The position numbers and the translations under genes are program-made. From assembly GCA_963768655.1 (NCBI GenBank), contig CAVYIM010000003.1:416001-480000 (forward strand): a DNA stretch of 64,000 bases. The letters run 5' to 3'. Source of the DNA: an uncultured Chloroflexia bacterium (GTDB lineage: Bacteria > Chloroflexota > Limnocylindria > Limnocylindrales > CSP1-4). Under the pieces are notes generated by a model. That model worked only from the letters and a program-made list of their open reading frames with translations, was not told the DNA's origin and made no database searches. Below are positions 25,682 through 42,651 of the stretch, in pieces (position 1 is the stretch's first letter; each line of letters starts with the position of its first letter).

Positions 25682-27655
25682 GTGATCACGGGGGATGGCA
25701 AGGCGGGCTGGCGAGCCAGGCTGGTAGTCGAGATCAGCACGATCGACACCAGGATTCTGTGGGCCGCGGGTGCGGCCCTGTTGGTCGTGGCCGCCATCGC
25801 GACCGCCGCCAATGCGCTCGATCTGGCCATAGCGGGTGCCGCCACGACGGTCGTGGCTGTAGCCGCGGCCGATCTGGGCCTCGCGCTTCTGGCCCTCGGG
25901 TGGCTGGCTCCGAGCGAACCCGCGACGGGAGCGGCCGCGGACGAGATCGCGGCGCCCGTGGCTGAACCGGCGCCGGCGACTTCGTCTTCGGACGTCGGTA
26001 CGGTCGAGCCCGAGCCCGTCGCCGCCCGCCGCAAAGCGGGCGGCCGAGCCCGTGTCCGGATGGAGCCCGCCGACGAGAAGCGGTACCGCGAGCTCGCCGT
26101 ATTTGCCGGGCGCGGCCCTGTGCCGCAATCGGCTCTCGAGGCGCTCTGGGGATCGCAGGGTCTATCGCCAGAGAGAATCATGCAGTTCATCGGCCGGCTG
26201 GTCGAGCGTTCGCTCGTGCGGCCCGGGAACGATGGCACCGTCATCGTCGACGAGCAGGCCGATGCGGCTGGCGCCGATTCGGCCGCCAGCCGGAAGACGG
26301 CTGCGACGACCCACGGGCGGCTCGTCGACGGCTACCAGTCCCGCTGCCCGGGTGGAGCATGGTGGCGGGGTCCGAACGACGGCTACTTCTTCGAGAACAT
26401 CGCCTACCACATGGCGGGGGCCAACAGAGCCCGCGAACTGAACGGCTTGCTCCTCGACTACGACTGGCTCCGCGCCAAGCTGGCCGTCAGCGGCATCATT
26501 CGCCTGCTCGCCGACTTCGCCTGTCAACCACTGCCACCCGACGCCGAAGCGGTGGACAAGGCGCTCGTGAGCTCGGCGGCATGTCTGGCCGCCCGTCCCG
26601 ATCGGCTGGCCTCGCTGCTGGCCGGCCGGCTCATCGGCCTTTCAAGCCCCGGGATCGATCGCCTGCTCGATCAGGTGCGCGAGCGGGCCCCGAGGCCCTG
26701 GATCTGCCCGCTCGCCTCAGCCGCCAAGGCATCGGCCAAGTCGCCGCGCGGCGCGATGCCCCGTCACGACGGCGCGGTGCGCGCGCTGGCGGTCACGCCC
26801 GATGGTCGCCGCCTCGTGACGGGCGGCGATGACCACGCCATCCGTATCTGGGATCTGGCAAGTGGCCGGCAGGAGCGCACGCTGCAGGGGCATATCGATT
26901 CGGTGCGGGCGGTGGCGGTCACTCCCGATGGCCGGCGTATCATCTCCGGCGGCACGTACGACGTCGTCAGAGTCTGGGATCTCAGGACCGGTCTGCTCGT
27001 GCACACACTTGCGGCCCAGGCCGGATGCCGCGCCATCTATGCGGTTGCCGTGACGAAGGATGGCCGGCGGGCCGTGTGGGCTGGCGCGGGCTCCTCGATC
27101 CAGGTCTGGGACCTCGCGGGCGGTCGGGCCGAGCACACGCTCATGAGCCGGGATGGCAACGTTCGAGCCCTGGCGATCACACCGGACGGCAAGTTCGCAC
27201 TCTCGGGCGGCGACGGCGGCATCGTCCAGGTTTGGGACCTCGGTACCGGCCTCCTGGCGCGGGCGTTGGACGGCCACGCCAGCCCCGTGCTGGCCATCGC
27301 TGTCACGCCCGATGGACGCCGGGTCGTCTCGGGCGGCCACGACAACACGGTTCAGGTTTGGGACCTGGCCAGCGGCCGGCTGGAACTGATGCTGTGGGGT
27401 CACACCGGCCCGGTCGACGCGGTGGCGGTGACTCCGGACGGCAAGCGGGTCCTCTCCGGCGGCCTCGACCGGACGGTGCGGATGTGGGACCTGTCCGACG
27501 GTCGCGAGATTGCCTCGTGGAGCCCCGAACCCGGGTCGGAAGATAAGCCCGATCCTGCCGTCACGACTTTCTGCTCGGTCCCCGGCGGCCCGCCGCAGGT
27601 CGCCTGCGGCGACTCGGCCGGCTACATCCGGATCCTTCGCCTGCTCGAGGCTTAG
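25682..27655 (+). CDS. Membrane-anchored winged-helix / APAF-1 helical / WD40 protein lacking an NTPase
   Basis: AAGGAG RBS; two N-terminal hydrophobic helices; YRELAVF..LEALW..LVERSLV; YFFENIAYH..LLLDYDWLRAKL; six clear WD40 repeats plus one degenerate. Confidence 0.82.
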   Translation: MITGDGKAGWRARLVVEISTIDTRILWAAGAALLVVAAIATAANALDLAIAGAATTVVAVAAADLGLALLALGWLAPSEPATGAAADEIAAPVAEPAPATSSSDVGTVEPEPVAARRKAGGRARVRMEPADEKRYRELAVFAGRGPVPQSALEALWGSQGLSPERIMQFIGRLVERSLVRPGNDGTVIVDEQADAAGADSAASRKTAATTHGRLVDGYQSRCPGGAWWRGPNDGYFFENIAYHMAGANRARELNGLLLDYDWLRAKLAVSGIIRLLADFACQPLPPDAEAVDKALVSSAACLAARPDRLASLLAGRLIGLSSPGIDRLLDQVRERAPRPWICPLASAAKASAKSPRGAMPRHDGAVRALAVTPDGRRLVTGGDDHAIRIWDLASGRQERTLQGHIDSVRAVAVTPDGRRIISGGTYDVVRVWDLRTGLLVHTLAAQAGCRAIYAVAVTKDGRRAVWAGAGSSIQVWDLAGGRAEHTLMSRDGNVRALAITPDGKFALSGGDGGIVQVWDLGTGLLARALDGHASPVLAIAVTPDGRRVVSGGHDNTVQVWDLASGRLELMLWGHTGPVDAVAVTPDGKRVLSGGLDRTVRMWDLSDGREIASWSPEPGSEDKPDPAVTTFCSVPGGPPQVACGDSAGYIRILRLLEA

Positions 27656-30905: not shown

Positions 30906-32435
30906 TTACGACTGCGGCTCGAGCTGCCCGCCGCCGGCCAGGCTGTAAGTCTTGCCGCCGAGGCCGGAGTTCGCTGCCAGGCTCGCGTCGTACGTGACCG
31001 TGTGGCCGTTCCCGTGGACGTTCGCGATCGTAGTTCCAGAGATGCCGCTCGAGTCGGTCAGGCTCGTCAGCTTCGAATTGCCGGTGACGTTCCAGACGCT
31101 CGTCGCGTCCAGGGTCAGCGCCGCCGAGTCGATTTTGCCGGTGAGCGTGGTCCCGTCCTGCAGCGTCGCCGCGATCGAGCTGGCGCTGTCGCTCACCAGA
31201 TCACCCGTCATGATTTCGCCTTCGGCCGTGAAGACGACCGTGCCGCCGTTCGAGCCGCTGGTGCCCCAGCTGCCCGCGGCAGCCTTGATCAGAACGCCGC
31301 TCGCGGCCGTGACCGTCACACCCTTGAGCGTTATCACGCCGGTGGAGTTGGTGACGTAGAAGAGAGGCCCGGTGGCAGCCGTGTTGCTGAGCGAGCCGCC
31401 GGTCATCGTGAAGGTGCCTTTCGTCCCGGCGGCGTCGCCGGACATGCTCTGGTAGATCATGACGCCCCACTTGTCGGCCACGCTGGAGGTCAGCGTCGCG
31501 TCGGTCAGGGTGATCGAGTTGCCGCCCTCGATGACGGCCGACTCCGAGCCGGTCGAAGTGTAGGTGCCGCCGGTGGCGGTGATCGCGCCGGTCGAGTAGA
31601 TGGCGGGGGAGTTCTGCCCGGAGGTGGTCGCCGTGCCGCCGTTGACGGTGATGGTGCCGCCGCCACGGTCAGTGGCGATGGCGGCCGAGCTGGCGCCGGC
31701 CGTGGAGATGGTTACGTTGGTCAGGTTGACCGTGCCGCCGCCGCTGGCCATGGCGCCGTGGGCATACTGGCCGGTCGCCTTGATCGTGGCGCCGGAGACG
31801 ATCACCGAGGCGCTCGATCCATAGGCGAAGACACCGTTGGCGCCGTCGCCGGTCGTGGTCACGGAGCCGCCCGTCATCGTGATCTTGCCGCCGGACTGGG
31901 CCAGCACGCCGGCGTCCAGGCCGTAGAAGCTGCTCTCATCGCTCGACTTGCTGGCTCCCGAGGTCGAGACCGTGGCGTCGGTCAGGGTCAGCGATCCCGT
32001 CCCGTTCACGAGGATCCCGGACTGGTCTGATTCGGTGGCGTTGTAGGTGGTGCCAGACTCGCTGTCCGTGCCCGTGCTGAGGGTGTAGGCGCCGGTCGGC
32101 GTGTACTGGGCCGTTGACGAGCCGCCGCCGGGCGCGTTGCCGCCGGGTGCAGCGCCGCCGGCCCCGTTGCCCGGAGCGCCGGAAGGGGCTGCTCCGCCAG
32201 GACCGCCGGGCGCGCCGGAAGGCGGGGCGCCTCCGGGACCGCCGGGTGCCGAGCCGGACGCAGCGGCAGAGGTCGAGGGCGTGGCCGCTGCGGTGGTCGC
32301 GCCCTGGCTCGAGGTGGAGCAGGCCGCCAGGACGATCGCGAGGGCGCCGGTCAGCAGGACCAGACGGGTGACCGCACGCGCTCGCGGTCGCGTCCTGGGC
32401 GGGGCTGTGACGTTGGGATAAGCGTGCTCGGTCAT
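30906..32435 (-). CDS. Lipoprotein with Gly/Pro linker and a right-handed beta-helix (autotransporter passenger-like)
   Basis: Lipobox LAAC; GGPGGAPP repeats; T/S/G-rich beta-strand repeats; SFYG, AIATDRGGG, IYQSMSGDA. Confidence 0.8.
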   Translation of the reverse strand: MTEHAYPNVTAPPRTRPRARAVTRLVLLTGALAIVLAACSTSSQGATTAAATPSTSAAASGSAPGGPGGAPPSGAPGGPGGAAPSGAPGNGAGGAAPGGNAPGGGSSTAQYTPTGAYTLSTGTDSESGTTYNATESDQSGILVNGTGSLTLTDATVSTSGASKSSDESSFYGLDAGVLAQSGGKITMTGGSVTTTGDGANGVFAYGSSASVIVSGATIKATGQYAHGAMASGGGTVNLTNVTISTAGASSAAIATDRGGGTITVNGGTATTSGQNSPAIYSTGAITATGGTYTSTGSESAVIEGGNSITLTDATLTSSVADKWGVMIYQSMSGDAAGTKGTFTMTGGSLSNTAATGPLFYVTNSTGVITLKGVTVTAASGVLIKAAAGSWGTSGSNGGTVVFTAEGEIMTGDLVSDSASSIAATLQDGTTLTGKIDSAALTLDATSVWNVTGNSKLTSLTDSSGISGTTIANVHGNGHTVTYDASLAANSGLGGKTYSLAGGGQLEPQS

Positions 32436-32640
32436 GTCAGGGCGGTCCTTTCGCGAGTTGTGTCAGTCTGCCCAGTTCGGGCGTCGCGAAGGGCTGGGGA
32501 CGGGGCCCGGGATGTTTGGGCCTGCCCCGCGACGAGCTGATGGTTGCCGCTTCCCCCTTTCGAGAGGATTACGCTGCCCGGGCCCGGCGCGTGTCGCGCC
32601 TCCGGGCCATCGAACTGTGGCGCCGACCTCTCACCGGCGG

Positions 32641-32687
32641 TAGCATGCGCTCCTCGTCGATGAACCGACCGACCGGTCGGTCGGTTC
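32641..32687 (+). promoter_or_regulatory. -10 TAGCAT plus perfect 26-bp palindromic operator GAACCGACCGACCGGTCGGTCGGTTC (32662-32687)
   Basis: The 26-mer equals its own reverse complement; it lies between the -10 and the tetR RBS. Confidence 0.8.
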
Positions 32688-32720
32688 GGACGCGCGACTC
32701 CACCAGCCAGGAGACAGCCG

Positions 32721-33386
32721 ATGCGGCGCCAGCGCTCGCAACCTGCCGATCACGGTTGCGCCAGCCGCGAGACGATCCTCGACGGCGCCTTCGAGGCGTT
32801 CACGAAGGGCGGCTATCGAGACACGGCGATCGACGACATCGCGGCCGCGGCCGAGGTGTCGAAAGGCGGCATCTACCACCACTTCCCGACGAAGGAGGCG
32901 ATCTTCCGCGAGCTGATGCGGACGACTGCCGACAAGCTGGTCGGGAAGGTCGAGACAGCCGTGGCGGCCGAGTCGGATCCGATCCGCAAGGCCGAAGTCG
33001 CGCTGTCGACGGTGCTCGAGGTGTTCGCCGGCCACCGGACGATGGCTCGCCTGTTCTTCGAGGCCGGCGCGGGTGGACGGGGCTTCCAGGCCGAGACGAA
33101 CGCCCTGCACGACCGATTCGCCCGACTGATCCAGTCGTACCTGGACGATGCCATAGCGCAGGGAACGATTCCGCCGACCGATACGCGCGTCACCAGCGTC
33201 GTCTGGTTCGGAGCGCTGGACGAGGTCGTAGCGCGCTGGCTGCAGGCGGAGCGCCCGGTCCGGCTCGAAGACGCGTACCCGACACTGCGGGCGCTTCTGC
33301 TGCGGAGCGTCGGCGTGGCCGAGACTACGATCGCCGCCGGTCCGCAGGCGGTGCCCCTGGCCACGTTCCCGGAGCAGCCGAAGTGA
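32721..33386 (+). CDS. TetR/AcrR family transcriptional regulator heading the men operon
   Basis: ILDGAFEAFTKGGYRDTAIDDIAAAAEVSKGGIYHHFPTKE; stop overlaps the menF GTG. Confidence 0.95.
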   Translation: MRRQRSQPADHGCASRETILDGAFEAFTKGGYRDTAIDDIAAAAEVSKGGIYHHFPTKEAIFRELMRTTADKLVGKVETAVAAESDPIRKAEVALSTVLEVFAGHRTMARLFFEAGAGGRGFQAETNALHDRFARLIQSYLDDAIAQGTIPPTDTRVTSVVWFGALDEVVARWLQAERPVRLEDAYPTLRALLLRSVGVAETTIAAGPQAVPLATFPEQPK

Positions 33387-34783
33387 CGGTGCCGGCCGGA
33401 GCGACGGTGGGCGGATCGGGCGCCGGGCTGGTCGCGGCCAGCATCTTGATCGAGTCGTTCGATGCCGTCGCACTGTACGCCGCGGCGGTCGAAGTCGGCC
33501 TGGAGGCGACGCTGTGGGCTCGACCGAGCGAGAGCTTCTCTCTCGTCGGGGTCGGTCGAGCGTGGTCGATCGAACCGGCCGGACCGGAGCGGTTCCTCGA
33601 AGCGGACGCGGCCTGGCGGGAACTAGTGGACGGCGCCCGGATCTCCCGACCGGCCGACGTCCGCGGGCTCGGGCCGGTCCTGTTGGGCGGGATGGGATTC
33701 GTGGGTCGCGCGCCGGCGCCGGAGGCCGAGTGGTCGCCGTTCGGCGCGTGCTCGATGGTGGTGCCTTCGCTGGTGGCTCTCCGATCCGATACCGGGTCGT
33801 GGCTGACCACGTCGATCGCCGGCGACGGCGCGGCCGGCGGCCCGATTGCAGCCGAACTGGAGCGCACGTGGGCAAAGCTCGTCGCCCGCGCCGCCGAGCT
33901 TGCGCCGCCGGCCGCCGACCCGGCCCCGGCTCTGCCCGACGCCCCGCTCGCGATCGACGGGGAGTGGCCGACCGTCCGGCAGTGGCGCCACATCGTCGGC
34001 CTGGCCACGGGCGCCGTCGGTCGCGGCCGGATCGACAAGGTCGTGTTCGCCCGCCGGGTCGACCTGTCGTCGCCCGCCGCGCTCGACGTGCCGGGCGCCC
34101 TTCGCCGCCTCTCCGCCAGCGCGCCCGAGAGCACCGTCTTCGCCTTCCGGCGCGGGGAGGCGCAGTTCATCGGGGCCACGCCGGAGCGGCTCGTTCGCGC
34201 CGAGGGTCGGACCTATCGCACCGCCGCCGTCGCCGGCTCGATCCGGCGCGGTGCCGATGCAGCGGAGGATGCCGCCCTCGCCACCGAACTGCTGGCGTCG
34301 GAGAAGGAGCGCGAGGAGCACGCCGTAGTCGTCCGCGCGATCCGCCGCGGGCTCACGCCCATCTCCGAGCAGATCCAGATCGCCGCCGAGCCGAGCGTCC
34401 TGGTGCTTCGCCACGTCCAGCACCTCGTGACGGAGATCACGGGGACGCTGCGGGTCCAGGAAGGGCTGCTGTCTCTGGCCGGGCGGCTGCATCCCACGCC
34501 GGCCGTCGGCGGCGAGCCGCGCGACCTGGCTCTGGCGATGATCGACGAGCACGAAGGATTCGATCGGGGCTGGTACGCCGGCCCGGTCGGATGGCTGAGC
34601 GCCGACGGCGACGGCGAATTGATGGTGGCCCTCCGCTGCGGTCTGGTTCAGGATCGCTGCGTCACGCTCTACGCCGGGTGCGGCATCGTCGCCGACTCGG
34701 ACCCCGACCGCGAATGGGAGGAATCGAGGATCAAGATGCGAGCGGTGGCTGCGGCCCTGGGCCGGGCCGGGGACGAGCCGTGA
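33383..34783 (+). CDS. menF: Isochorismate synthase
   Basis: KVVFAR, FIGATPERL, AGSIRRG, KEREEH, LHPTPAVGG, RGWYAGPVG, YAGCGIVADSDP. Confidence 0.93.
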   Translation: MTVPAGATVGGSGAGLVAASILIESFDAVALYAAAVEVGLEATLWARPSESFSLVGVGRAWSIEPAGPERFLEADAAWRELVDGARISRPADVRGLGPVLLGGMGFVGRAPAPEAEWSPFGACSMVVPSLVALRSDTGSWLTTSIAGDGAAGGPIAAELERTWAKLVARAAELAPPAADPAPALPDAPLAIDGEWPTVRQWRHIVGLATGAVGRGRIDKVVFARRVDLSSPAALDVPGALRRLSASAPESTVFAFRRGEAQFIGATPERLVRAEGRTYRTAAVAGSIRRGADAAEDAALATELLASEKEREEHAVVVRAIRRGLTPISEQIQIAAEPSVLVLRHVQHLVTEITGTLRVQEGLLSLAGRLHPTPAVGGEPRDLALAMIDEHEGFDRGWYAGPVGWLSADGDGELMVALRCGLVQDRCVTLYAGCGIVADSDPDREWEESRIKMRAVAAALGRAGDEP

Positions 34784-36618
34784 GCGCGACCGGCGGCCGG
34801 CCGAGCCAGCTCCGCGCGTTCGTTGAAGAGCTTGCCAGGGCCGGGGTTCGCGACGCCGTCGTCTGTCCCGGCTCTCGTTCCACGCCGCTGGCGCTGGCGC
34901 TTCGCGCCCACGATCGCATCCGAGTCCGGGTCCTGATCGACGAACGCTCCGCAGGATTCTTCGCTCTCGGCATTGCCCGCACGACGGGGCGTGCCGTCGT
35001 TCTGCTCGGGACTTCGGGCACCGCCGCGGCCAACTTCGCGCCGGCGGTCGTGGAGGCGTCGTTGAGCCGCGTGCCACTCGTGATCCTGACCGCGGATCGG
35101 CCGGCGGAGCTGCAGGATCGCGGCGCGCCGCAGACGATCGACCAGGACCATCTTTACGGCCGCCGCGCGAAGTGGTTCGCGGGGGTCGATCTGACCGACG
35201 GGGCGCCGGACACGATGGCCCACGTCCGATCGGTGGCAGGGCGGGCGGTCGCGACGGCGGTCGAAGGGCCGGCCGGGCCGGTTCACCTGAACTTGCCGCT
35301 GCGCGAGCCGCTCATCCCGACCGAGGACCTGGGCGCGATCGAGGGCCCGATCGGGGAGCGCGACCCCGCGGCCGGCGGCGCGGCGCCTTTCGCTGCCGCG
35401 GTCTCCGGACGACGAACGCTCGAGCCCGACCAGGTCGATACGATCGCCCGGCGCCTGGCCGCCGCGAATCACGGGCTGATCGTCGCCGGCCCGCTCGACG
35501 ATCCGGCCACTCACGATCCGATCGCCCGCCTTGCCGCCGCGACCGGCTACCCGATCCTGGCCGACCCGCTCTCGGGCCTGCGCCGCGGCCCGCACGATCG
35601 CTCGCTCATCCTCTCCCACGCCGACCACATCGTCCGGCCGGGGCCTTGGATCGACGCCCATCGGCCCGAGCTCGTCGTTCGCTTCGGGGCGATGCCGACA
35701 TCCAAGCCGATCACGGAGCTGATGCGCGGCGTCGCCCCGGACCTGTTCGTCGTCGACGGCGGCGGCGGCTGGCGCGAGGCGGCGCTGGTTCCGGCCACGT
35801 TCGTTCACGCGGATGCCGCGTCGGCGGCCACGGCGCTGGCCGATGCGCTTGAGAGCGCGCGGTTGGCGGGCTCGGACCCCGGGCCGTCGCGCCGCCCCTG
35901 GACCGAGGCCTGGCTCGCGGCCGAAAGGGCCGCCGGCCGGGCCCTCGACGCCTGGCTCGATGGGCTGCGCGAGCCGTTCGAGGGGTCGCCGTTCAAGGCG
36001 CTCGGCGACGTCCTCCCGGCCGGAGCTCTGCTGTGGGCCGGCAACTCGATGCCGGTGCGCGACATGGACGCCTGGCTTCCCGCGGGCGAGCGGGCCATTC
36101 GCGTGCTCGGGAACCGCGGGGCCAACGGCATCGACGGCGTGACCTCGACCGCGCTTGGCTCGGCCGCCGTGGCCGGCGGTCCGGTCGTGCTGGTTGTCGG
36201 CGACGTCTCGTTCCTGCACGATCTCGGTGCGCTGGTCACGGCCCGACTGCACGAGGTCGATCTCATGGTCGTCCTGGTCAACAACGACGGCGGCGGCATC
36301 TTCTCGCTGCTGCCCCAGGCTCGAACGGCGGCGCCCGGAGCCGGCCTGCCGGCCCACTACGAGGAGCTATTCGGGACGCCGCACGGAATCGCGCTCGGGC
36401 CGATCGTCGAGGCGTTTGGGTTCCGGCACCGCGCCGTGGAGAGTGGCGGCTACGCGGACCTGCGCGCCGCCATCGAGGCGGAGATGGGCCGGCCGGGGCT
36501 GCGGGTGCTCGAGCTGCGGACGGCTCGGGCGCGCAACGCCGAGCTGCACGGAGCCGCGGCCGCCGCAGCGGCATCGGCCCTGGCGACGCTCGCCGGCGAA
36601 ACGGAGCGGACCCCATGA
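34780..36618 (+). CDS. menD: SEPHCHC synthase
   Basis: [61 protein letters not shown]. Confidence 0.96.
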
Positions 36619-37460
36619 CCCGCATCCACGTCGATGGTGCGAGCTACGAGCTGCGAACCGGCGGCGCCGGCCCGCCGCTGCTGTTGATTCACGGTTTCAC
36701 CGGCCGTGGCTCCGATTGGGCGCCGTTCCTGCCGGCGCTGAGCCAGAAGACCACGACGATCACGGTCGATCTCCTCGGCCACGGCGACTCCGACGCGCCG
36801 CCCGAACCGGCCCGTCACGCCGTCGAACGCCAGGCTGCGGACCTGGCCGCCATCCTCCGCCGGCTCGGGGCCGCGCCGGCGGCCGTGGTCGGCTACTCGC
36901 TCGGCGCTCGGGTCGCGCTCCGGATGGCAGTCGCCTCGTCCGGGGTGGTCGCCAGGCTGATGCTCGAGAGCCCGTCGGCTGGAATCGCCGATACGGCCGA
37001 GCGCGCCGCCCGCCGCGATGCCGACGAACAGCTGGCGCGGCTCCTCGATCGCGGGCGGATCGAAGCCTTCGTGGACCGCTGGGAGGAGCAGCCGCTCTTC
37101 GCGGCCGAGCAGGCGCTCGGAGACGAGATCCGGGGCCGCCTCCACGCGGCGCGCCTGCACAACCGCCCCGCTGGCCTGGCCGCATCGCTGCGCGGGGCCG
37201 GTCAGGGCGCGATGGAGCCGCTCCACGGCCGTCTCTCGGGTGTGAAGGCGCCGACCGTCGTGCTCGCCGGGGTGCTCGACGAGGCCGGCTCGGAGCGGGC
37301 TCGGGGGATCGCGGCGGGTATTCCAGGGGCGCGTCTGACCATCCTGGAAGGCGTCGGCCACGCCCCGCATCGCGAGGCTCCAGACCGCGTGGCCGAGATC
37401 CTCCTCGAGTTCATCGCTCGCCCGGCCCCGCTCCACGCCACCGAAAGGGAACCGACATGA
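36615..37460 (+). CDS. menH: SHCHC synthase (alpha/beta hydrolase)
   Basis: [32 protein letters not shown]; position between menD and menB. Confidence 0.92.
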
Positions 37461-38290
37461 CAGACGGCACCGAGATCACCTGGACGCCGGTCGTGGAGTA
37501 CCGGGACATCCGCTACGAGCATTCCGGCACCGGCATCGCGCTCGTGACCATCAACCGTCCGGAAGTGCGCAACGCCTTCCGGCCGGAGACCGTGGCCGAG
37601 CTGATCGACGCCTTCCGACGCATTCGAGACGACGGTTCGATCGGGTGCGTCCTGCTGACCGGAGCCGGCGACAAGGCCTTCTGCTCGGGCGGAGACCTGC
37701 GCGTCAAGGGTCGCGGCGGCTACGTCGGCGAGGATGGGCTGGCGCGACTCAACGTCCTCGACCTGCAGCGCCAGATCCGATCGCTGCCGGTGCCGGTCAT
37801 CGCCCTTGTGAACGGCTTCGCGATCGGCGGTGGACACGTCCTGCACATCGTCTGCGATCTTTCGATCGCGTCGGAGGATGCCATCTTCGGCCAGGTCGGG
37901 CCGCAGGTCGGCAGCTTCGACGCGGGCTTCGGGATCGGGCTTCTGGCCCGGCTCGTCGGCGACAAGAAGGCCAAGGAGATGTGGTTCCTGTGCCGCCGCT
38001 ACGACGCACGCCAGGCGCTCGAGATGGGCCTCGTCAACGCCGTGGTGCCGCCGGAGCGGCTGCTCGCCGAGGGCGTCGCCTGGGCCGACGAGATTCTGGC
38101 CATGAGCCCGACGGCGATCCGATTCCTCAAGTCGGCGTTCCTGGTCGCCACCGACGGCCTGGCCGGTCTGCAGGAGTTCGCGGGCAACGCGACCGGCCTG
38201 TACTACACGACCGACGAAGCTCACGAGGGTTCGACGGCATTCCTCGAGAAGCGCAAGCCCGACTTCAGGCGCTTCCCCCGGCGACCGTGA
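37457..38290 (+). CDS. menB: 1,4-dihydroxy-2-naphthoyl-CoA synthase
   Basis: [38 protein letters not shown]. Confidence 0.97.
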
Positions 38291-38300
38291 GGCCGCGCGG

Positions 38301-39272
38301 ATGAGCGCCGCTGCCCCCGGCGCCGCTGCCCCCGGCGCCGCTGCCCCCGGCGCCGCCGCGGCGATCGATCGGCCGCCTTCGAGCCTTCGGGTCTGGCTGC
38401 TGGCGGTTCGCCCGGCCACGCTGCCGGCTTCGATCGCGCCGGTGCTCGTCGGGCTGGGCGCCGCGATCGGCTCCGGCGTCGCGTTTCGACCGGGCGCCGC
38501 GGCGGCCTGTCTCGCCGTGGGACTGCTGCTCCAGATCGCGGCCAACCTGGCCAACGACCTGGCCGATTTCCGGCGCGGCGCCGACACGCCGGATCGGATG
38601 GGACCTGTCCGCGTGGCGGCTGCGGGGCTGCTGACCGAGGGCCGGCTCGAGGTCGGGATCGGGACCGTCATCGCCGCGTCGGCGGTCTTCGGCGTGTACC
38701 TGGCCGCGGTGGGCGGACCCGGCATGCTGGTCGTGGGCGCCCTCGCGGTGATCTCCGCCCTCGCCTACACCGGAGGCCCGTGGCCCTACGGCTACCGCGG
38801 CCTGGGCGAGGTCTTCGTTTTCGTCTTCTTCGGCCTCGTCGCGACCGGCGTGACGGCGTACCTGCAAGCCGGTCGAGTCGAATGGGTGTACGTGCTCGCC
38901 GCGGTGCCGATGGGGGCGCTCATCACGGGGGTCCTGATCGTGAACAACCTGCGCGACATCCCGACGGATCGGGCGGCGGGTAAGCGGACGCTGGCGGTCA
39001 GCTTCGGCGAGGGATTCGCGAAGGCCGAGTACTACGCGACGCTGGCCGTCGCGGCAGTCGTGCCGGTGGGCCTGCTCGCGGCGCGGCTTGCCGGCCCGGC
39101 GGTATTGCTGCCTTTGCTCTCGGGGCTCATGGTTCCGCCGCTGGTGCGAGAGGTGCGGGCGGTCGGGCCGGCGTCCGATCGGCGGCGGCTGAACCTCGTG
39201 CTGAAGGGCACGGCCCGGCTGTCGCTGGCCTACGGCGTGCTGTTCGCAATCGGGCTGGCTGGACCCCGATGA
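38301..39272 (+). CDS. menA: DHNA polyprenyltransferase
   Basis: RPATLPAS, NLANDLADFRRGAD, YTGGPWPYGYRGLGE, NNLRDIPTDRAAGKRTLAV. Confidence 0.95.
   Translation: MSAAAPGAAAPGAAAPGAAAAIDRPPSSLRVWLLAVRPATLPASIAPVLVGLGAAIGSGVAFRPGAAAACLAVGLLLQIAANLANDLADFRRGADTPDRMGPVRVAAAGLLTEGRLEVGIGTVIAASAVFGVYLAAVGGPGMLVVGALAVISALAYTGGPWPYGYRGLGEVFVFVFFGLVATGVTAYLQAGRVEWVYVLAAVPMGALITGVLIVNNLRDIPTDRAAGKRTLAVSFGEGFAKAEYYATLAVAAVVPVGLLAARLAGPAVLLPLLSGLMVPPLVREVRAVGPASDRRRLNLVLKGTARLSLAYGVLFAIGLAGPR
38307..38351 (+). repeat. 15-bp tandem repeat GCCGCTGCCCCCGGC x3 (AAAPG) in the menA 5' end
   Basis: Three exact copies visible. Confidence 0.9.
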
Positions 39273-40375
39273 GCAGCACCGTCGTCGCGGCCGAGGCGAT
39301 CCGGGTTCGGGTGCCGTTCTGGCGGCCCATCCGCACGGCGGCCGGAAACTGGACTCATCGCGAATCGTGGATCCTGCGGCTGTGGGACGCCGACGGCGCG
39401 GTCGGACTTGGCGAGGCGGCTCTGGACTTCGACGCGCGGAAGGCCGCGTCGGCCGAGCTGGCCCGGCTGGTCCGCGATGTTGTCGAACGTCTGCAGTCAG
39501 TCGGTCGGTTGCCGGGTGGCAAGGAATTGGGAGCGGCCGGCGTACCGGCTCGCGCGCTGCTATGCGCGGTCGTTTCGGCCTACCACGATTTTGGCCGCGC
39601 ATTCCGGAAAAGCGTTCCTGGCGGCTCGGTGGGCGTCAACGCCACGATCGGATACCTGGAAATGCCGCAGCTGGAAGCCGCGGCACGGGACGCCGTCGCC
39701 GCCGGCTTCGGCACGATCAAGATGAAGGTCGGCCCGGAACGCGACACCGCCGAGCTGGTCGAGCGCGTGGCCGCGGTCCGGGCGGCCGCCGGCTCAGGCG
39801 CACGGCTTCGGCTCGACGCGAACGGGGCCTGGGACGTCGCCACCGCTCGCGAGCGGATCGCGGCCGTCGCGCAATTCGACATCGAATACGTCGAGCAGCC
39901 GGTGGCCCCTGGCGACCCGCGCCATCTGGCGGCCGTCAGCGATGGGTCAGCGGTGCCGATCGCCGCGGACGAATCGGTGTGCTGCGTGAAAGCCGCCCGC
40001 GAACTGCTGGACGCTGAGGCGGCCGACGTCCTTGTCGTCAAGCTGGCGCGAGTCGGCGGACAGCAGAAGGCCATGTTGATCGCTGCGCCGGCCGCTGCGA
40101 AGGGCGTGCCCGTGGTCATCTCCACGCTCTTCGAGACGGGAGTAGGCATCTCGGCCGCGCTTGGGGCGGCAGTGGCGGTGGGGGTCCCAGACCGCGTGCC
40201 GCCCAATCTCGCGGGACTGGCCCACGGCCTCGCGACGGCGGACCTGCTCGAGTCCGATCTCCTCGGGAGCCCGCTGCGGGTCATGGGCGGTCGCATGGTC
40301 GTGCCGGCGGAGATTGCGCTCGACGAGGACGCGGTCGAGCGGTACGCGGTCGAGAAGATCGGCATGCGGCCGTGA
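39269..40375 (+). CDS. menC: o-succinylbenzoate synthase (enolase superfamily)
   Basis: KMKVG, LRLDANGAW, YVEQP, AADES; men operon context. Confidence 0.88.
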   Translation: MSSTVVAAEAIRVRVPFWRPIRTAAGNWTHRESWILRLWDADGAVGLGEAALDFDARKAASAELARLVRDVVERLQSVGRLPGGKELGAAGVPARALLCAVVSAYHDFGRAFRKSVPGGSVGVNATIGYLEMPQLEAAARDAVAAGFGTIKMKVGPERDTAELVERVAAVRAAAGSGARLRLDANGAWDVATARERIAAVAQFDIEYVEQPVAPGDPRHLAAVSDGSAVPIAADESVCCVKAARELLDAEAADVLVVKLARVGGQQKAMLIAAPAAAKGVPVVISTLFETGVGISAALGAAVAVGVPDRVPPNLAGLAHGLATADLLESDLLGSPLRVMGGRMVVPAEIALDEDAVERYAVEKIGMRP

Positions 40376-42651
40376 TCGCCACTCCGTCCTTCGTCGACGC
40401 GGCCCGCCTCCACGCCCGCCTTCGACCCGACGACACCGCGGTTCTCGACGGCGAGCTGCGCTGGTCGTGGGCCGAGCTGGACCGTCGGGCCGACGCCGTT
40501 GCCGCGGGGTTGGCTGCCGCCGGCATCGTGCCGGGCGACCGCGTCGGGGTGGTGGCCATCTCATCGGCCGGCGTCGTCGCCGCTCTCCATGGAATCGTCC
40601 GGGCCGGCATCGTCTCAGTGCCGATCGGGCCACGTCTGACACGGCCGGAGATCGCCGCCATCGAGACCGCTGCCGGCCTGCGGGCGATCGTCGGGGCTGA
40701 TGGCGGCATAACCTCGATCGGAGGGCCGCGCCCGCCCGCCGGCACTCCCGCGGTCATCGTCCCCACCTCTGGAACGACCGGCCGGCCGAAGCTGGTCAGG
40801 CTCGGAGTGGCCCAGCTCGATGCCAGCGCCGCCGCGTGGTCCGCCGTTCTGCCGCCCGCGACCGGGTGGCTGCTGTCGCTGAACCTCGCCCACGTCTCAG
40901 GCATCGGGATACTGGTGCGGGCGGCGAGGGCCGGTGTGCCGGTCGTCGTGCCCGTCACGACGGACCGCGAGCCCATCGGGCCCAGCCTCCGAGCCGCCCG
41001 ATCCGCCGGCGTCCGCGTCAGCCATGTTTCGCTCGTCGTGCCGCAGCTCGTCCGACTTCTCGATGCCGGCGCAGGCGTGGCCCCGGCGGACCTTCGCGCC
41101 ATTCTCCTGGGCGGCGGCCCGATCCCCGAGTGGCTGGTGTCCCGCGCCGTGGCCCACGGCTGGCCCGTCATCCCCAGCTTCGGCATGACCGAGACGGCCT
41201 CGGGCGTGGTTGCCATGCCGCTCGGCGCCGCGAGTCACCGTCCCTGGTCGGCCGGACGGCCGCTGCCCGGCGTCGAGCTCCGCATCGAGGCCGGCGCCGG
41301 CGCACCCGATGCGGACGGCGAAATCCTCGTCCGCGGCCCGATGGTCTTCGCCGGTTACGAGAACGATCCCGAAATGTCCGCGGCGGCCCTCGACGCGGCG
41401 GGCTGGCTGCACACCGGCGATCTCGGGCGGCTCGATTCGGAAGGCTGGCTTCGGGTCGTGGGCCGCCTGGACGAGATCATCATCTCGGGCGGCGAGAACG
41501 TCGCTCCCGCCGAGATCGAGGCGGTGGTCGTGAGCCATCCGGCCGTCGCCGACGCCGGCGTGGTCGGTGTAGCCGACGAGAGATGGGGAGCCGTTCCGGT
41601 CGCGGTCGTCGCCTTCCGTCCGGGCGCTCGGGAAGACCCGCAAGCCCTTCGGACATTCGTCCGCGAGCGTCTGGCTTCGTTCAAGGTGCCCGCCCGTATC
41701 GTCGAAGCTGCCGCCATCCCCCGGTCGCCCACCGGCAAGCTGCTCCGGCGCTCGCTGCCCGCGCTGGTCGGCCGCCGCGCTGACGCTGCCGCCGGCCGAG
41801 GGCCTTCCCTCGTCGGGGCGGCTGCCGGGACGACAGCCGGAACGACGAGGATCGAAGCCGACGACGGCCAGCCGCTCGCCTTCCGCGATCTGCCCGGGCC
41901 GCCGGACGGGCCGGCCGTCGTCCTTCTCCATGCGACCCTTTCGACCTCTCGGCAGCTGCTTCGGCTCGCCGGTCTGTTGAGGCCCGACGCTCGTGTGCTG
42001 CTGCCGGATAGGCGGGGGAGCGGCGCCAGCGCGATGGCGAGCCCGGCGCCGGTGTCGATCGCCCGCCACGTCGCCGACCTGCTGGCCGTTCTCGACGCCG
42101 CCGCCGTCTCGCGCCCCGTCATCTTCGGCCACAGCTTCGGCGCGCTTCTGGCTCTCGAATTCGCGGCTCGCCATCGCGAACGGGCGGCCGCGGTGGTGGC
42201 ATACGAGCCGCCCTACCTGGCGGTCGCATCCCCGGCGCTGCTGGCGCGGCTCGGCCGGCTGGCCGGCGCCGTGGCCACGGTGCACGCCACGAGTGGCCCG
42301 GCAGTCGCGGCTCAGCTGTTCGTCCGCGCAGTTGCCGGCGACGAAGCGTGGGAGAGCATGACGTCCGCCCAGCGCTCCTCGGTCGAGGCCGAGGGTTCGG
42401 GCGCCCTCGCCGACACGTCGATGGAGGACCTCGATCTGGCCGGGCTGCCGGGCATCGCCTGCCCCGTCGTCCTCGCAACCGGCGGGGCCTCGGACGGTTT
42501 CTATGCCCCGATCGCGGATGCGCTCGCCGCCGCGATCCCCGGGTCGCGCCGCGTCGTCATGCCGGGCCTGCGCCACGTCGCGCCGGTCACGGTCCCGGCG
42601 CCGTTTGCGGAGCTGATCCAGGCGTCGAGCTCGCGAGCCTCCCATACTTGA
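40372..42651 (+). CDS. menE: OSB-CoA ligase fused to a C-terminal alpha/beta hydrolase
   Basis: TSGTTGRPK, FGMTET, WLHTGD, SGGENV, TGKL; then LLHATL, DRRGSGAS, GHSFG, YEPP, LRHVAP, all in one frame. Confidence 0.88.
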   Translation: MIATPSFVDAARLHARLRPDDTAVLDGELRWSWAELDRRADAVAAGLAAAGIVPGDRVGVVAISSAGVVAALHGIVRAGIVSVPIGPRLTRPEIAAIETAAGLRAIVGADGGITSIGGPRPPAGTPAVIVPTSGTTGRPKLVRLGVAQLDASAAAWSAVLPPATGWLLSLNLAHVSGIGILVRAARAGVPVVVPVTTDREPIGPSLRAARSAGVRVSHVSLVVPQLVRLLDAGAGVAPADLRAILLGGGPIPEWLVSRAVAHGWPVIPSFGMTETASGVVAMPLGAASHRPWSAGRPLPGVELRIEAGAGAPDADGEILVRGPMVFAGYENDPEMSAAALDAAGWLHTGDLGRLDSEGWLRVVGRLDEIIISGGENVAPAEIEAVVVSHPAVADAGVVGVADERWGAVPVAVVAFRPGAREDPQALRTFVRERLASFKVPARIVEAAAIPRSPTGKLLRRSLPALVGRRADAAAGRGPSLVGAAAGTTAGTTRIEADDGQPLAFRDLPGPPDGPAVVLLHATLSTSRQLLRLAGLLRPDARVLLPDRRGSGASAMASPAPVSIARHVADLLAVLDAAAVSRPVIFGHSFGALLALEFAARHRERAAAVVAYEPPYLAVASPALLARLGRLAGAVATVHATSGPAVAAQLFVRAVAGDEAWESMTSAQRSSVEAEGSGALADTSMEDLDLAGLPGIACPVVLATGGASDGFYAPIADALAAAIPGSRRVVMPGLRHVAPVTVPAPFAELIQASSSRASHT

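Follow-up and report, generated by a model that had tools for sequence, protein, structure and literature searches.

A TetR-family regulator with a predicted palindromic operator heads menaquinone genes of either pathway in Chloroflexota

Here we focus on a stretch of 64,000 nucleotides, referred to as the window, from an uncultured bacterium of the Limnocylindria (Chloroflexota; assembly GCA_963768655.1, contig CAVYIM010000003.1, positions 416,001 to 480,000). In it, a gene for a TetR-family regulator is preceded by a perfect palindrome of 26 bp and followed by seven genes of classical menaquinone (vitamin K2) biosynthesis. Orthologues of this regulator form a phylum-wide family whose members are found ahead of menaquinone genes, in some genomes those of the classical pathway (men) and in others those of the futalosine pathway (mqn), and the occurrence of the TetR-operator pair before both points to a dedicated regulator that has not been described. 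Judged from sequence and its conservation, the palindrome is very probably the operator of the TetR protein encoded 34 nt downstream, which would repress itself and the men operon under the control of an effector that is probably common to both routes. In its mechanism the unit would be a conventional TetR-operator pair; what is new is its target and its occurrence with either pathway. The regulator gene and the elements ahead of it are as follows.

32641..32646, plus strand: TAGCAT, a -10-like hexamer in the promoter predicted for tetR-men (direct sequence reading)
32662..32687, strandless: predicted TetR operator, a 26-bp perfect palindrome (uniqueness and conservation)
32668..32681, strandless: operator centre of 14 bp, ACCGACCGGTCGGT, the same as the Burkholderia cenocepacia PaaR operator
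32709..32714, plus strand: AGGAGA, the ribosome-binding site of tetR (direct sequence reading)
32721..33386, plus strand: tetR, 221 amino acids, TetR-family regulator of a FadR/MbdR/PfmR-like subgroup (Pfam, PDB, Foldseek)

The palindrome consists of two 13-nt arms, GAACCGACCGACC and GGTCGGTCGGTTC, with 100% complementarity and no spacer between them. It is separated from TAGCAT by 15 nt and may also be viewed as a set of ACCGAC-N2-GTCGGT, -N6- and -N10- units that overlap. Downstream, tetR runs from an ATG at 32721 to a TGA stop codon that overlaps the GTG start of menF at 33383 (GTGA), and 4-nt overlaps are found at six of the seven junctions in tetR-menFDHBACE, the exception being menB/menA with a gap of 10 nt. 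An earlier account of this DNA, made from its letters and hereafter the sequence-only reading, had described a perfect palindrome just downstream of TAGCAT, the coupling of tetR to menF and the 4-nt overlaps of most genes that follow, and each of these is borne out. It had also taken the TetR as dedicated to the men operon that it heads and as acting through its own operator, a proposal that gains support from the linkage and the footprint described below.

Such a palindrome exceeds chance expectation. The genome containing the window (3.37 Mb, 68.7% G+C, 88.6% completeness) holds eight perfect zero-spacer palindromes with arms of at least 13 nt, against one in total over three mononucleotide shuffles. 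The pattern of this particular palindrome, at up to three mismatches, occurs once in the window and in none of 100 shuffles; at up to five mismatches it is still single in the genome, where the only other site needs six. Further copies, which the sequence-only reading had thought worth seeking before genes such as menG or a prenyl synthase, did not materialize: a genome scan allowing one mismatch per half-site returned three other matches, none of them operator-like, and no copy before either gene. Four longer perfect palindromes (28-32 bp) lie elsewhere in this genome, at C4:383369, C4:235998, C2:14013 and C6:232201.

The arrangement is conserved among relatives. In a sample of 51 genomes of the genus, menF (E <= 1e-40) is present in 21, and tetR stands immediately upstream of it in all 18 in which the 5' end of menF and its upstream DNA share a contig; in the remaining three the contigs stop inside menF. 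The pattern AACCGACC-N4..8-GGTCGGTT was found in exactly one copy in 16 of the 51 genomes (a reversed-pattern control gave 0), and all 16 sites adjoin tetR-menF, while genome G062 carries a variant operator. A close orthologue of the TetR protein (E < 1e-70) is encoded in 13 of 37 genus genomes sampled, the window's own included, and in none of 24 genomes of the sister family, each of about 1.1 Mb. When 12 upstream regions from the genus were aligned by eye, the operator was kept in all 12 and TAG(C/G)AT was kept as well, with unrelated flanks; CAGGAGA ahead of the start codon is retained in the closer orthologous loci. The co-occurrence of tetR, operator and menF across the genus indicates a cassette that a genome either has in full or does not have. 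About 30 of the 51 genomes (among G001-G074; many of the assemblies are 60-90% complete) have neither menF nor MqnA/MqnD and no TetR orthologue, and no genes of the MqnA/MqnD families were found in any of the 51, so menaquinone synthesis seems to be patchy within the genus.

At class level, a scan of one genome per species gave 207 pattern matches, 193 of which encode a relative; the best 80 of these 193 (62-94% identity), all from Chloroflexota or Candidatus Limnocylindrales/Limnocylindria metagenome-assembled genomes, were used. The gene following tetR on the same strand is menF in 78 of the 80 loci, and the two exceptions end 36 and 170 nt downstream, so that the conservation of the tetR-men linkage, on which the earlier proposal depended, extends to 78 of 78 class loci with enough downstream DNA, besides the 18 of 18 in the genus. 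The phylogenetic footprint that it had called for was likewise found. Among the 80 loci with at least 120 nt upstream, namely 79 class loci and the window (L092 is without upstream DNA), every one has an exact match to ACCGAC-N6-GTCGGT (14 loci) or ACCGAC-N10-GTCGGT (66 loci), and the flanks cannot be aligned. The class consensus of the two arms is RACCGACCGACY and RGTCGGTCGGTY. A TAnnnT hexamer precedes the operator by 1-17 nt in 79 of the 80 (TAGGAT in 20, TAGCAT in 17, TACGAT in 12, others in the rest), the distance from the end of the -10 to the operator being 1-4 nt in several relatives. These linkage counts exclude a chance neighbourhood of tetR and men genes. A second operator between tetR and menF was also considered and rejected, as the loose GC-rich matches (up to two mismatches) seen there in 18 of 79 loci are not conserved.

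A cultured organism carries the same arrangement. By tblastn of a plasmid collection, a TetR protein with 44% identity (WP_012643125.1), annotated only as TetR/AcrR family, was identified in Thermomicrobium roseum DSM 5159, where a 918-kb replicon encodes it. Its gene overlaps that of isochorismate synthase by 4 nt, with menD and menH next, and upstream of it lies GTGCTACACT followed by GAATCCGACTGACGCGTCGGTCGGATTC. The latter is a palindrome of 28 bp with one mismatched pair, of the CGAC/GTCG-repeat type seen in the window. The collection yielded three records at E <= 1e-8, two of them from Marinobacter with 29-30% identity; only the Thermomicrobium record is informative.

Across the phylum, a regulator profile (alignment A1) at E <= 1e-25 gave one match each in 113 of 401 Chloroflexota genomes and 59 of 217 genera. 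Outside the genus there are 111 places, of which 64 loci were examined, namely 24 of the 26 best and 40 hand-picked across families; this phylum sample leaves out the loci of the unpublished genomes G112 and G296, which enter the two preceding tallies only, and 45 further places. The genes downstream of tetR in the 64 loci are as follows.

34 of 64 loci: menF, usually then menD
17 of 64 loci: futalosine pathway genes
3 of 64 loci: menA and an SsuA-like binding protein
1 of 64 loci: menB-menA
1 of 64 loci: a weak MqnE-like radical SAM protein, below the cut-off
1 of 64 loci: a binding protein/ABC transporter only
5 of 64 loci: no menaquinone gene (HemQ-like once, MscL twice, unknown twice)
2 of 64 loci: contig cut

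The classical context thus accounts for 38 of the 64 loci (menF first in 34, menB/menA in four), while the first gene of the 17 futalosine loci is mqnA in six, mqnE in six, an SCO4490-type decarboxylase with MqnP in four, and MqnP with UbiX in one. By regular expression, AAC(C/A)GAC-N2..10-GTC(G/T)GTT after a -10-like hexamer was found in 51 of the 64, and several others have a looser form. The window shows the same traits as the family at large: the orthologue lies directly upstream of the men genes and on their strand, with the palindrome after a -10-like hexamer.

In a quick maximum-likelihood tree of 66 regulators, men and mqn contexts are interleaved and at least six changes are needed; the window protein groups with a men-linked branch (SH-aLRT 98). 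Even within one taxonomic family, TetR proteins 73-82% identical to one another head either menF-menD or mqnA-radical SAM-mqnC, and only five alignment columns separate these men- and mqn-linked sets. Across the phylum alignment, no column is conserved but different between men-linked and mqn-linked proteins.

Some of these loci have features of their own. At L168:1495-3582 (G142:C29), a single uninterrupted open frame of 712 amino acids covers both the TetR orthologue and isochorismate synthase, a natural TetR::MenF fusion. At L209, L211, L213 and L177, the orthologue heads an SsuA-like binding protein, an ABC ATPase and MenA, with the early men genes absent from the part of each locus examined, a context that could represent a module for uptake of the naphthoate headgroup and its prenylation. 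At L181, L182, L184 and L196, all from one family, the mqn operon comprises mqnA, a 'variant radical SAM' gene (NF045502) and mqnC, and the canonical MqnE is absent there.

The sequence-only reading had likened the site to PaaR-type boxes, and the comparison upholds this. The operator of B. cenocepacia PaaR (BCAL0210), ACCGACCGGTCGGT(T), is identical to window positions 32668-32681 (PMC2770484). There the box sits in the core promoter and was described by Hamlin et al. as a dual overlapping inverted repeat resembling the QacR operator, and its mutation abolishes control of PpaaA (PMC2770484); according to later work cited in a review, phenylacetyl-CoA (CoA, coenzyme A) releases PaaR (PMC9493321). 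In the window, by contrast, the repeat is longer, at 26 bp, and follows the -10, and the TetR gene heads a biosynthetic operon, whereas PaaR governs catabolic paa genes and is not the first gene of the operon it regulates. The downstream genes are men genes, the site is unique, and PaaA (TIGR02156) has no match in the genome at its 88.6% completeness. Without PaaA and without another box, the regulator is not one for phenylacetate. A PaaR-type DNA-reading head may have been re-used for a biosynthetic pathway, the comparison with PaaR being one of DNA boxes. T. thermophilus PaaR was rejected as a box model, its box CNAACGNNCGTTNG differing from the window site (PMC6651687).

A second point of comparison is PfmR (TTHB023) of Thermus thermophilus HB8, whose structure is 3VPR (PMC10636190). 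Its predicted box, TACCGACCGNTNGGTN, has ACCGACCG in common with the window operator, and it is the autoregulated first gene of its own operon (PMC7022988), as is predicted for tetR in the window. The two proteins match over their full length (E 2e-13 as a single sequence) with about 25% identity, but the PfmR operon serves fatty-acid and phenylacetate metabolism, unlike the men genes of the window.

From this anatomy, we propose that the TetR protein would bind the palindrome as a dimer, or possibly as two offset dimers on its overlapping repeats; the second arrangement is suggested by the overlap of the ACCGAC-N2-, -N6- and -N10-GTCGGT units, and Hamlin et al. put it forward for the PaaR box with QacR as the model. 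Were transcription to start about 7 nt after TAGCAT, the operator would occupy about +9 to +35, and binding would be expected to block initiation or early elongation of a single transcript of tetR and the translationally coupled menF-D-H-B-A-C-E. In this way the regulator would repress itself together with the entire classical menaquinone pathway of this Limnocylindria genome. Repression as the outcome is suggested by where the site lies and by how PaaR, PfmR and most TetR proteins act.

The palindrome could instead work as RNA. A transcript starting close behind TAGCAT would contain it, and a stable hairpin in the leader of tetR might then act on mRNA stability, processing or attenuation. Folding of the leader does give a hairpin of 12 bp (minimum free energy -30.8 kcal/mol), but this is no better than shuffles (z = -1.6, with 13 of 200 shuffles equal to it), and the best Rfam match of the leader has an E of 0.62, which is chance level. 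Moreover, the ACCGAC/GTCGGT sequence itself is kept in 80 of 80 loci, which is more than pairing alone would ask for, and in those relatives whose -10 ends 1-4 nt before the site the left arm would be partly untranscribed. With the same 14-mer being a validated repressor site elsewhere (PMC2770484), we regard a role as RNA as very improbable. Scarcely more probable is that the protein binds the site but activates or dually regulates the men promoter in the manner of FasR in fatty-acid synthesis, a structural neighbour by Foldseek that NCBIfam NF053731 names an activator. The absence of a recognisable -35, typical of activator-dependent promoters, would fit this. However, activators usually bind upstream of the -35, and in all loci the operator lies downstream of the -10 or abuts it, which is the position of a repressor. 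Repression is also what most TetR proteins do, including the two known readers of this box, PaaR and PfmR (PMC2770484, PMC7022988).

The DNA-binding domain of the protein is clear from a Pfam search, with TetR_N (PF00440) at E 5e-17 over residues 19-65 (61.8 bits against a cut-off of 24), followed by TetR_C_24 at E 3e-7 and a weak match to TetR_C_4 'YsiA-like'. All NCBIfam equivalogs are far under their cut-offs, the top one being Bacillus-type FadR (NF053878) with 69.3 bits against 200, which leaves the protein outside every named family. Its closest solved relatives are acyl-CoA-sensing TetR proteins: a PDB profile search gave full-length matches to B. halodurans FadR (5gp9, 7e-18), MbdR (4e-16), B. 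subtilis FadR (3whb, 7e-16) and PfmR (3VPR, 7e-15). An AlphaFold2 model (mean pLDDT 85) has 10 helices and shows the all-helical C-terminal ligand-binding and dimerisation domain of the family. Foldseek placed FadR first, in its apo and stearoyl-CoA-bound forms (3whb, 3whc, 5gpa; TMq 0.73-0.76), followed by EthR2, Rv0078, PfmR (rank 8), FasR and other acyl-CoA-binding TetR proteins, with TMq 0.71-0.76 to FadR, EthR2 and Rv0078. The nearest clusters in the ESM Atlas, mostly from Chloroflexota and then Actinomycetota, bear generic TetR names only.

Taken on their sequence, these matches assign the protein to the lipid- or acyl-CoA-sensing FadR/MbdR/PfmR branch of TetR regulators, and the modelled fold suggests a lipid-like or CoA-bearing ligand. 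The protein is distinct from the regulators that define this branch. FadR of the Bacillus YsiA type (B. subtilis, B. halodurans), which is released by acyl-CoA, gives the best profile and fold matches, but it has many sites per genome before beta-oxidation genes, in contrast to one site per genome before menaquinone genes; with its equivalog score below the cut-off and no multi-site fatty-acid-degradation regulon, the window protein is not a FadR of that type. MbdR of Azoarcus sp. CIB senses 3-methylbenzoyl-CoA, autoregulates and covers the -10 and transcription start site (PMC4424350), yet its operator (ATACN10GTAT) and its catabolic target are both unlike the window system. A thiol-based quinone sensor was considered and rejected, the regulator family being without a conserved cysteine.

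The nature of the effector is where the two pathways become informative. The sequence-only reading had proposed that the repressor senses o-succinylbenzoyl-CoA (OSB-CoA), 1,4-dihydroxy-2-naphthoyl-CoA (DHNA-CoA) or the free acid, DHNA. The same repressor-operator unit released by a CoA thioester of the classical pathway, as in PaaR, would agree with the operator core, which equals the PaaR box (PMC2770484), and with the nearest characterised relatives, which sense acyl-CoA (FadR), 3-methylbenzoyl-CoA (MbdR; PMC4424350) and phenylacetyl-CoA (PaaR; PMC9493321); the operon also yields two aryl-CoA intermediates, through menE and menB. Against this, orthologues head futalosine operons in 17 of 64 loci, and the futalosine pathway has no CoA-thioester intermediates. 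The proteins that are 73-82% identical serve both pathways with no residue column to split them, the family is also used for putative prenylation or salvage modules, and induction of a whole pathway by its own mid-pathway intermediate would be poor regulatory logic. OSB-CoA and DHNA-CoA are therefore unlikely effectors, and that part of the proposal falls away; DHNA survives, only as one member of a dihydroxynaphthoate class.

Most likely, then, the effector is a molecule common to both routes, and the near-identity of regulators on the two routes narrows it to a handful. As a matter of judgement rather than measurement, we would place menaquinone, demethylmenaquinone or the quinol first, itself a tentative choice, and a dihydroxynaphthoate (DHNA or its 6-carboxy isomer) second, with appreciably less confidence. 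A polyprenyl diphosphate ranks a little lower, level with some other effector or none, and chorismate, which fits less well than the other common molecules, ranks last, level with the two CoA thioesters.

On a bolder view, which we find possible and still doubtful, this would be the first dedicated transcription factor of vitamin K2: a phylum-wide, pathway-agnostic sensor of menaquinone supply, whose FadR-like tunnel would hold an isoprenoid quinone or polyprenyl diphosphate and whose occupancy would set repression of whichever route the cell carries, be it classical, futalosine, or headgroup salvage with prenylation. If the ligand were the quinone, it would act as a co-repressor that strengthens binding, giving true end-product feedback at the level of transcription. 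Ligand-strengthened co-repressor mechanisms are known from DesT and FabR.

Several observations weigh against the palindrome and TetR protein being a repressor-operator unit of the men operon with a shared effector. A strict sigma-70 scan of 32300-33700 returned 0 promoters and 0 terminators, a scan that is uninformative for Chloroflexota, and no -35 element was recognised upstream of TAGCAT; the predicted promoter therefore stands on the conserved -10-like hexamer by itself. In most class relatives, the gap between tetR and menF is estimated at 36-70 nt, leaving room for a possible internal menF promoter, whereas the two genes overlap in the window. Orthologues differ in the spacing of the outer half-sites, which is 2, 6 or 10 bp, and one fixed dimer geometry does not account for this. 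Among the 62 phylum loci with downstream DNA, five are without an adjacent menaquinone gene, and the locus with only a binding protein/ABC transporter is to be set beside them. The class loci probably overlap the genus genomes, and loci from kin are not independent. As for the effector, the argument assumes that the ligand is conserved among orthologues; and by the usual TetR logic, in which the ligand releases the repressor, an end-product effector that is not a co-repressor would create positive feedback.

Little has been described of how bacteria adjust their menaquinone pool beyond the inhibition of MenD by DHNA and indirect global effects. The former, an allosteric inhibition reported for M. 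tuberculosis and S. aureus (PMC9835592), acts at the enzyme level, in the classical pathway only and through a late soluble intermediate, in contrast to the transcriptional control predicted here. The open-access literature searched contained no dedicated transcription factor, TetR or other, of men or mqn genes, in line with the earlier statement that men genes in model organisms are not known to have a co-transcribed TetR repressor, and the available part of a Desulfovibrio transposon study (PMC4045070) holds nothing on a menaquinone regulator. The system offers a testable candidate, in which a single predicted repressor is paired with a single operator in each genome, the pair is conserved across a phylum and T. 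roseum serves as a cultured representative. It also offers natural experiments, as nearly identical regulators accompany two biosynthetic routes that are unrelated but lead to the same product, and vitamin K2 engineering would gain from it a switch responsive to quinones or naphthoates.

The seven men genes that follow tetR are all matched by NCBIfam or Pfam models and are arranged as follows.

33383..34783, plus strand: menF, isochorismate synthase (TIGR00543, 312 bits against a cut-off of 225); GTG start, GTGA junction with tetR
34780..36618, plus strand: menD, 2-succinyl-5-enolpyruvyl-6-hydroxy-3-cyclohexene-1-carboxylate (SEPHCHC) synthase (TIGR00173, 437 bits against 244); GTGA junction
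36615..37460, plus strand: menH, 2-succinyl-6-hydroxy-2,4-cyclohexadiene-1-carboxylate (SHCHC) synthase (TIGR03695, 213 bits against 209); ATGA junction
37457..38290, plus strand: menB, DHNA-CoA synthase (NF005637, 437 bits against 380); ATGA junction
38301..39272, plus strand: menA, DHNA polyprenyltransferase (NF004751, 296 bits against 264); 10-nt gap after menB
39269..40375, plus strand: menC, o-succinylbenzoate synthase of the enolase superfamily (MR_MLE_C, E 3e-45; NCBIfam models of this synthase below their cut-offs); ATGA junction
40372..42651, plus strand: menE, OSB-CoA ligase fused to a C-terminal alpha/beta hydrolase, 759 amino acids; GTGA junction

In the menE fusion, AMP-binding and AMP-binding_C domains are followed by Abhydrolase_6 at residues 516-747, and TIGR01923 scores 302 bits against a cut-off of 330. 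A separate gene for a DHNA-CoA thioesterase is absent from the operon, and menE carries the alpha/beta hydrolase domain. Upstream and divergent from tetR (30906-32435, minus strand) lies a gene for a protein of 509 amino acids, rich in Gly, Ala, Ser and Thr and with an N-terminal hydrophobic stretch, for which no Pfam or NCBIfam family match was found. Further upstream, the open reading frame at 25682-27655 encodes repeated '...VWDL...G' units that, judged from the translation alone, resemble WD40 repeats.

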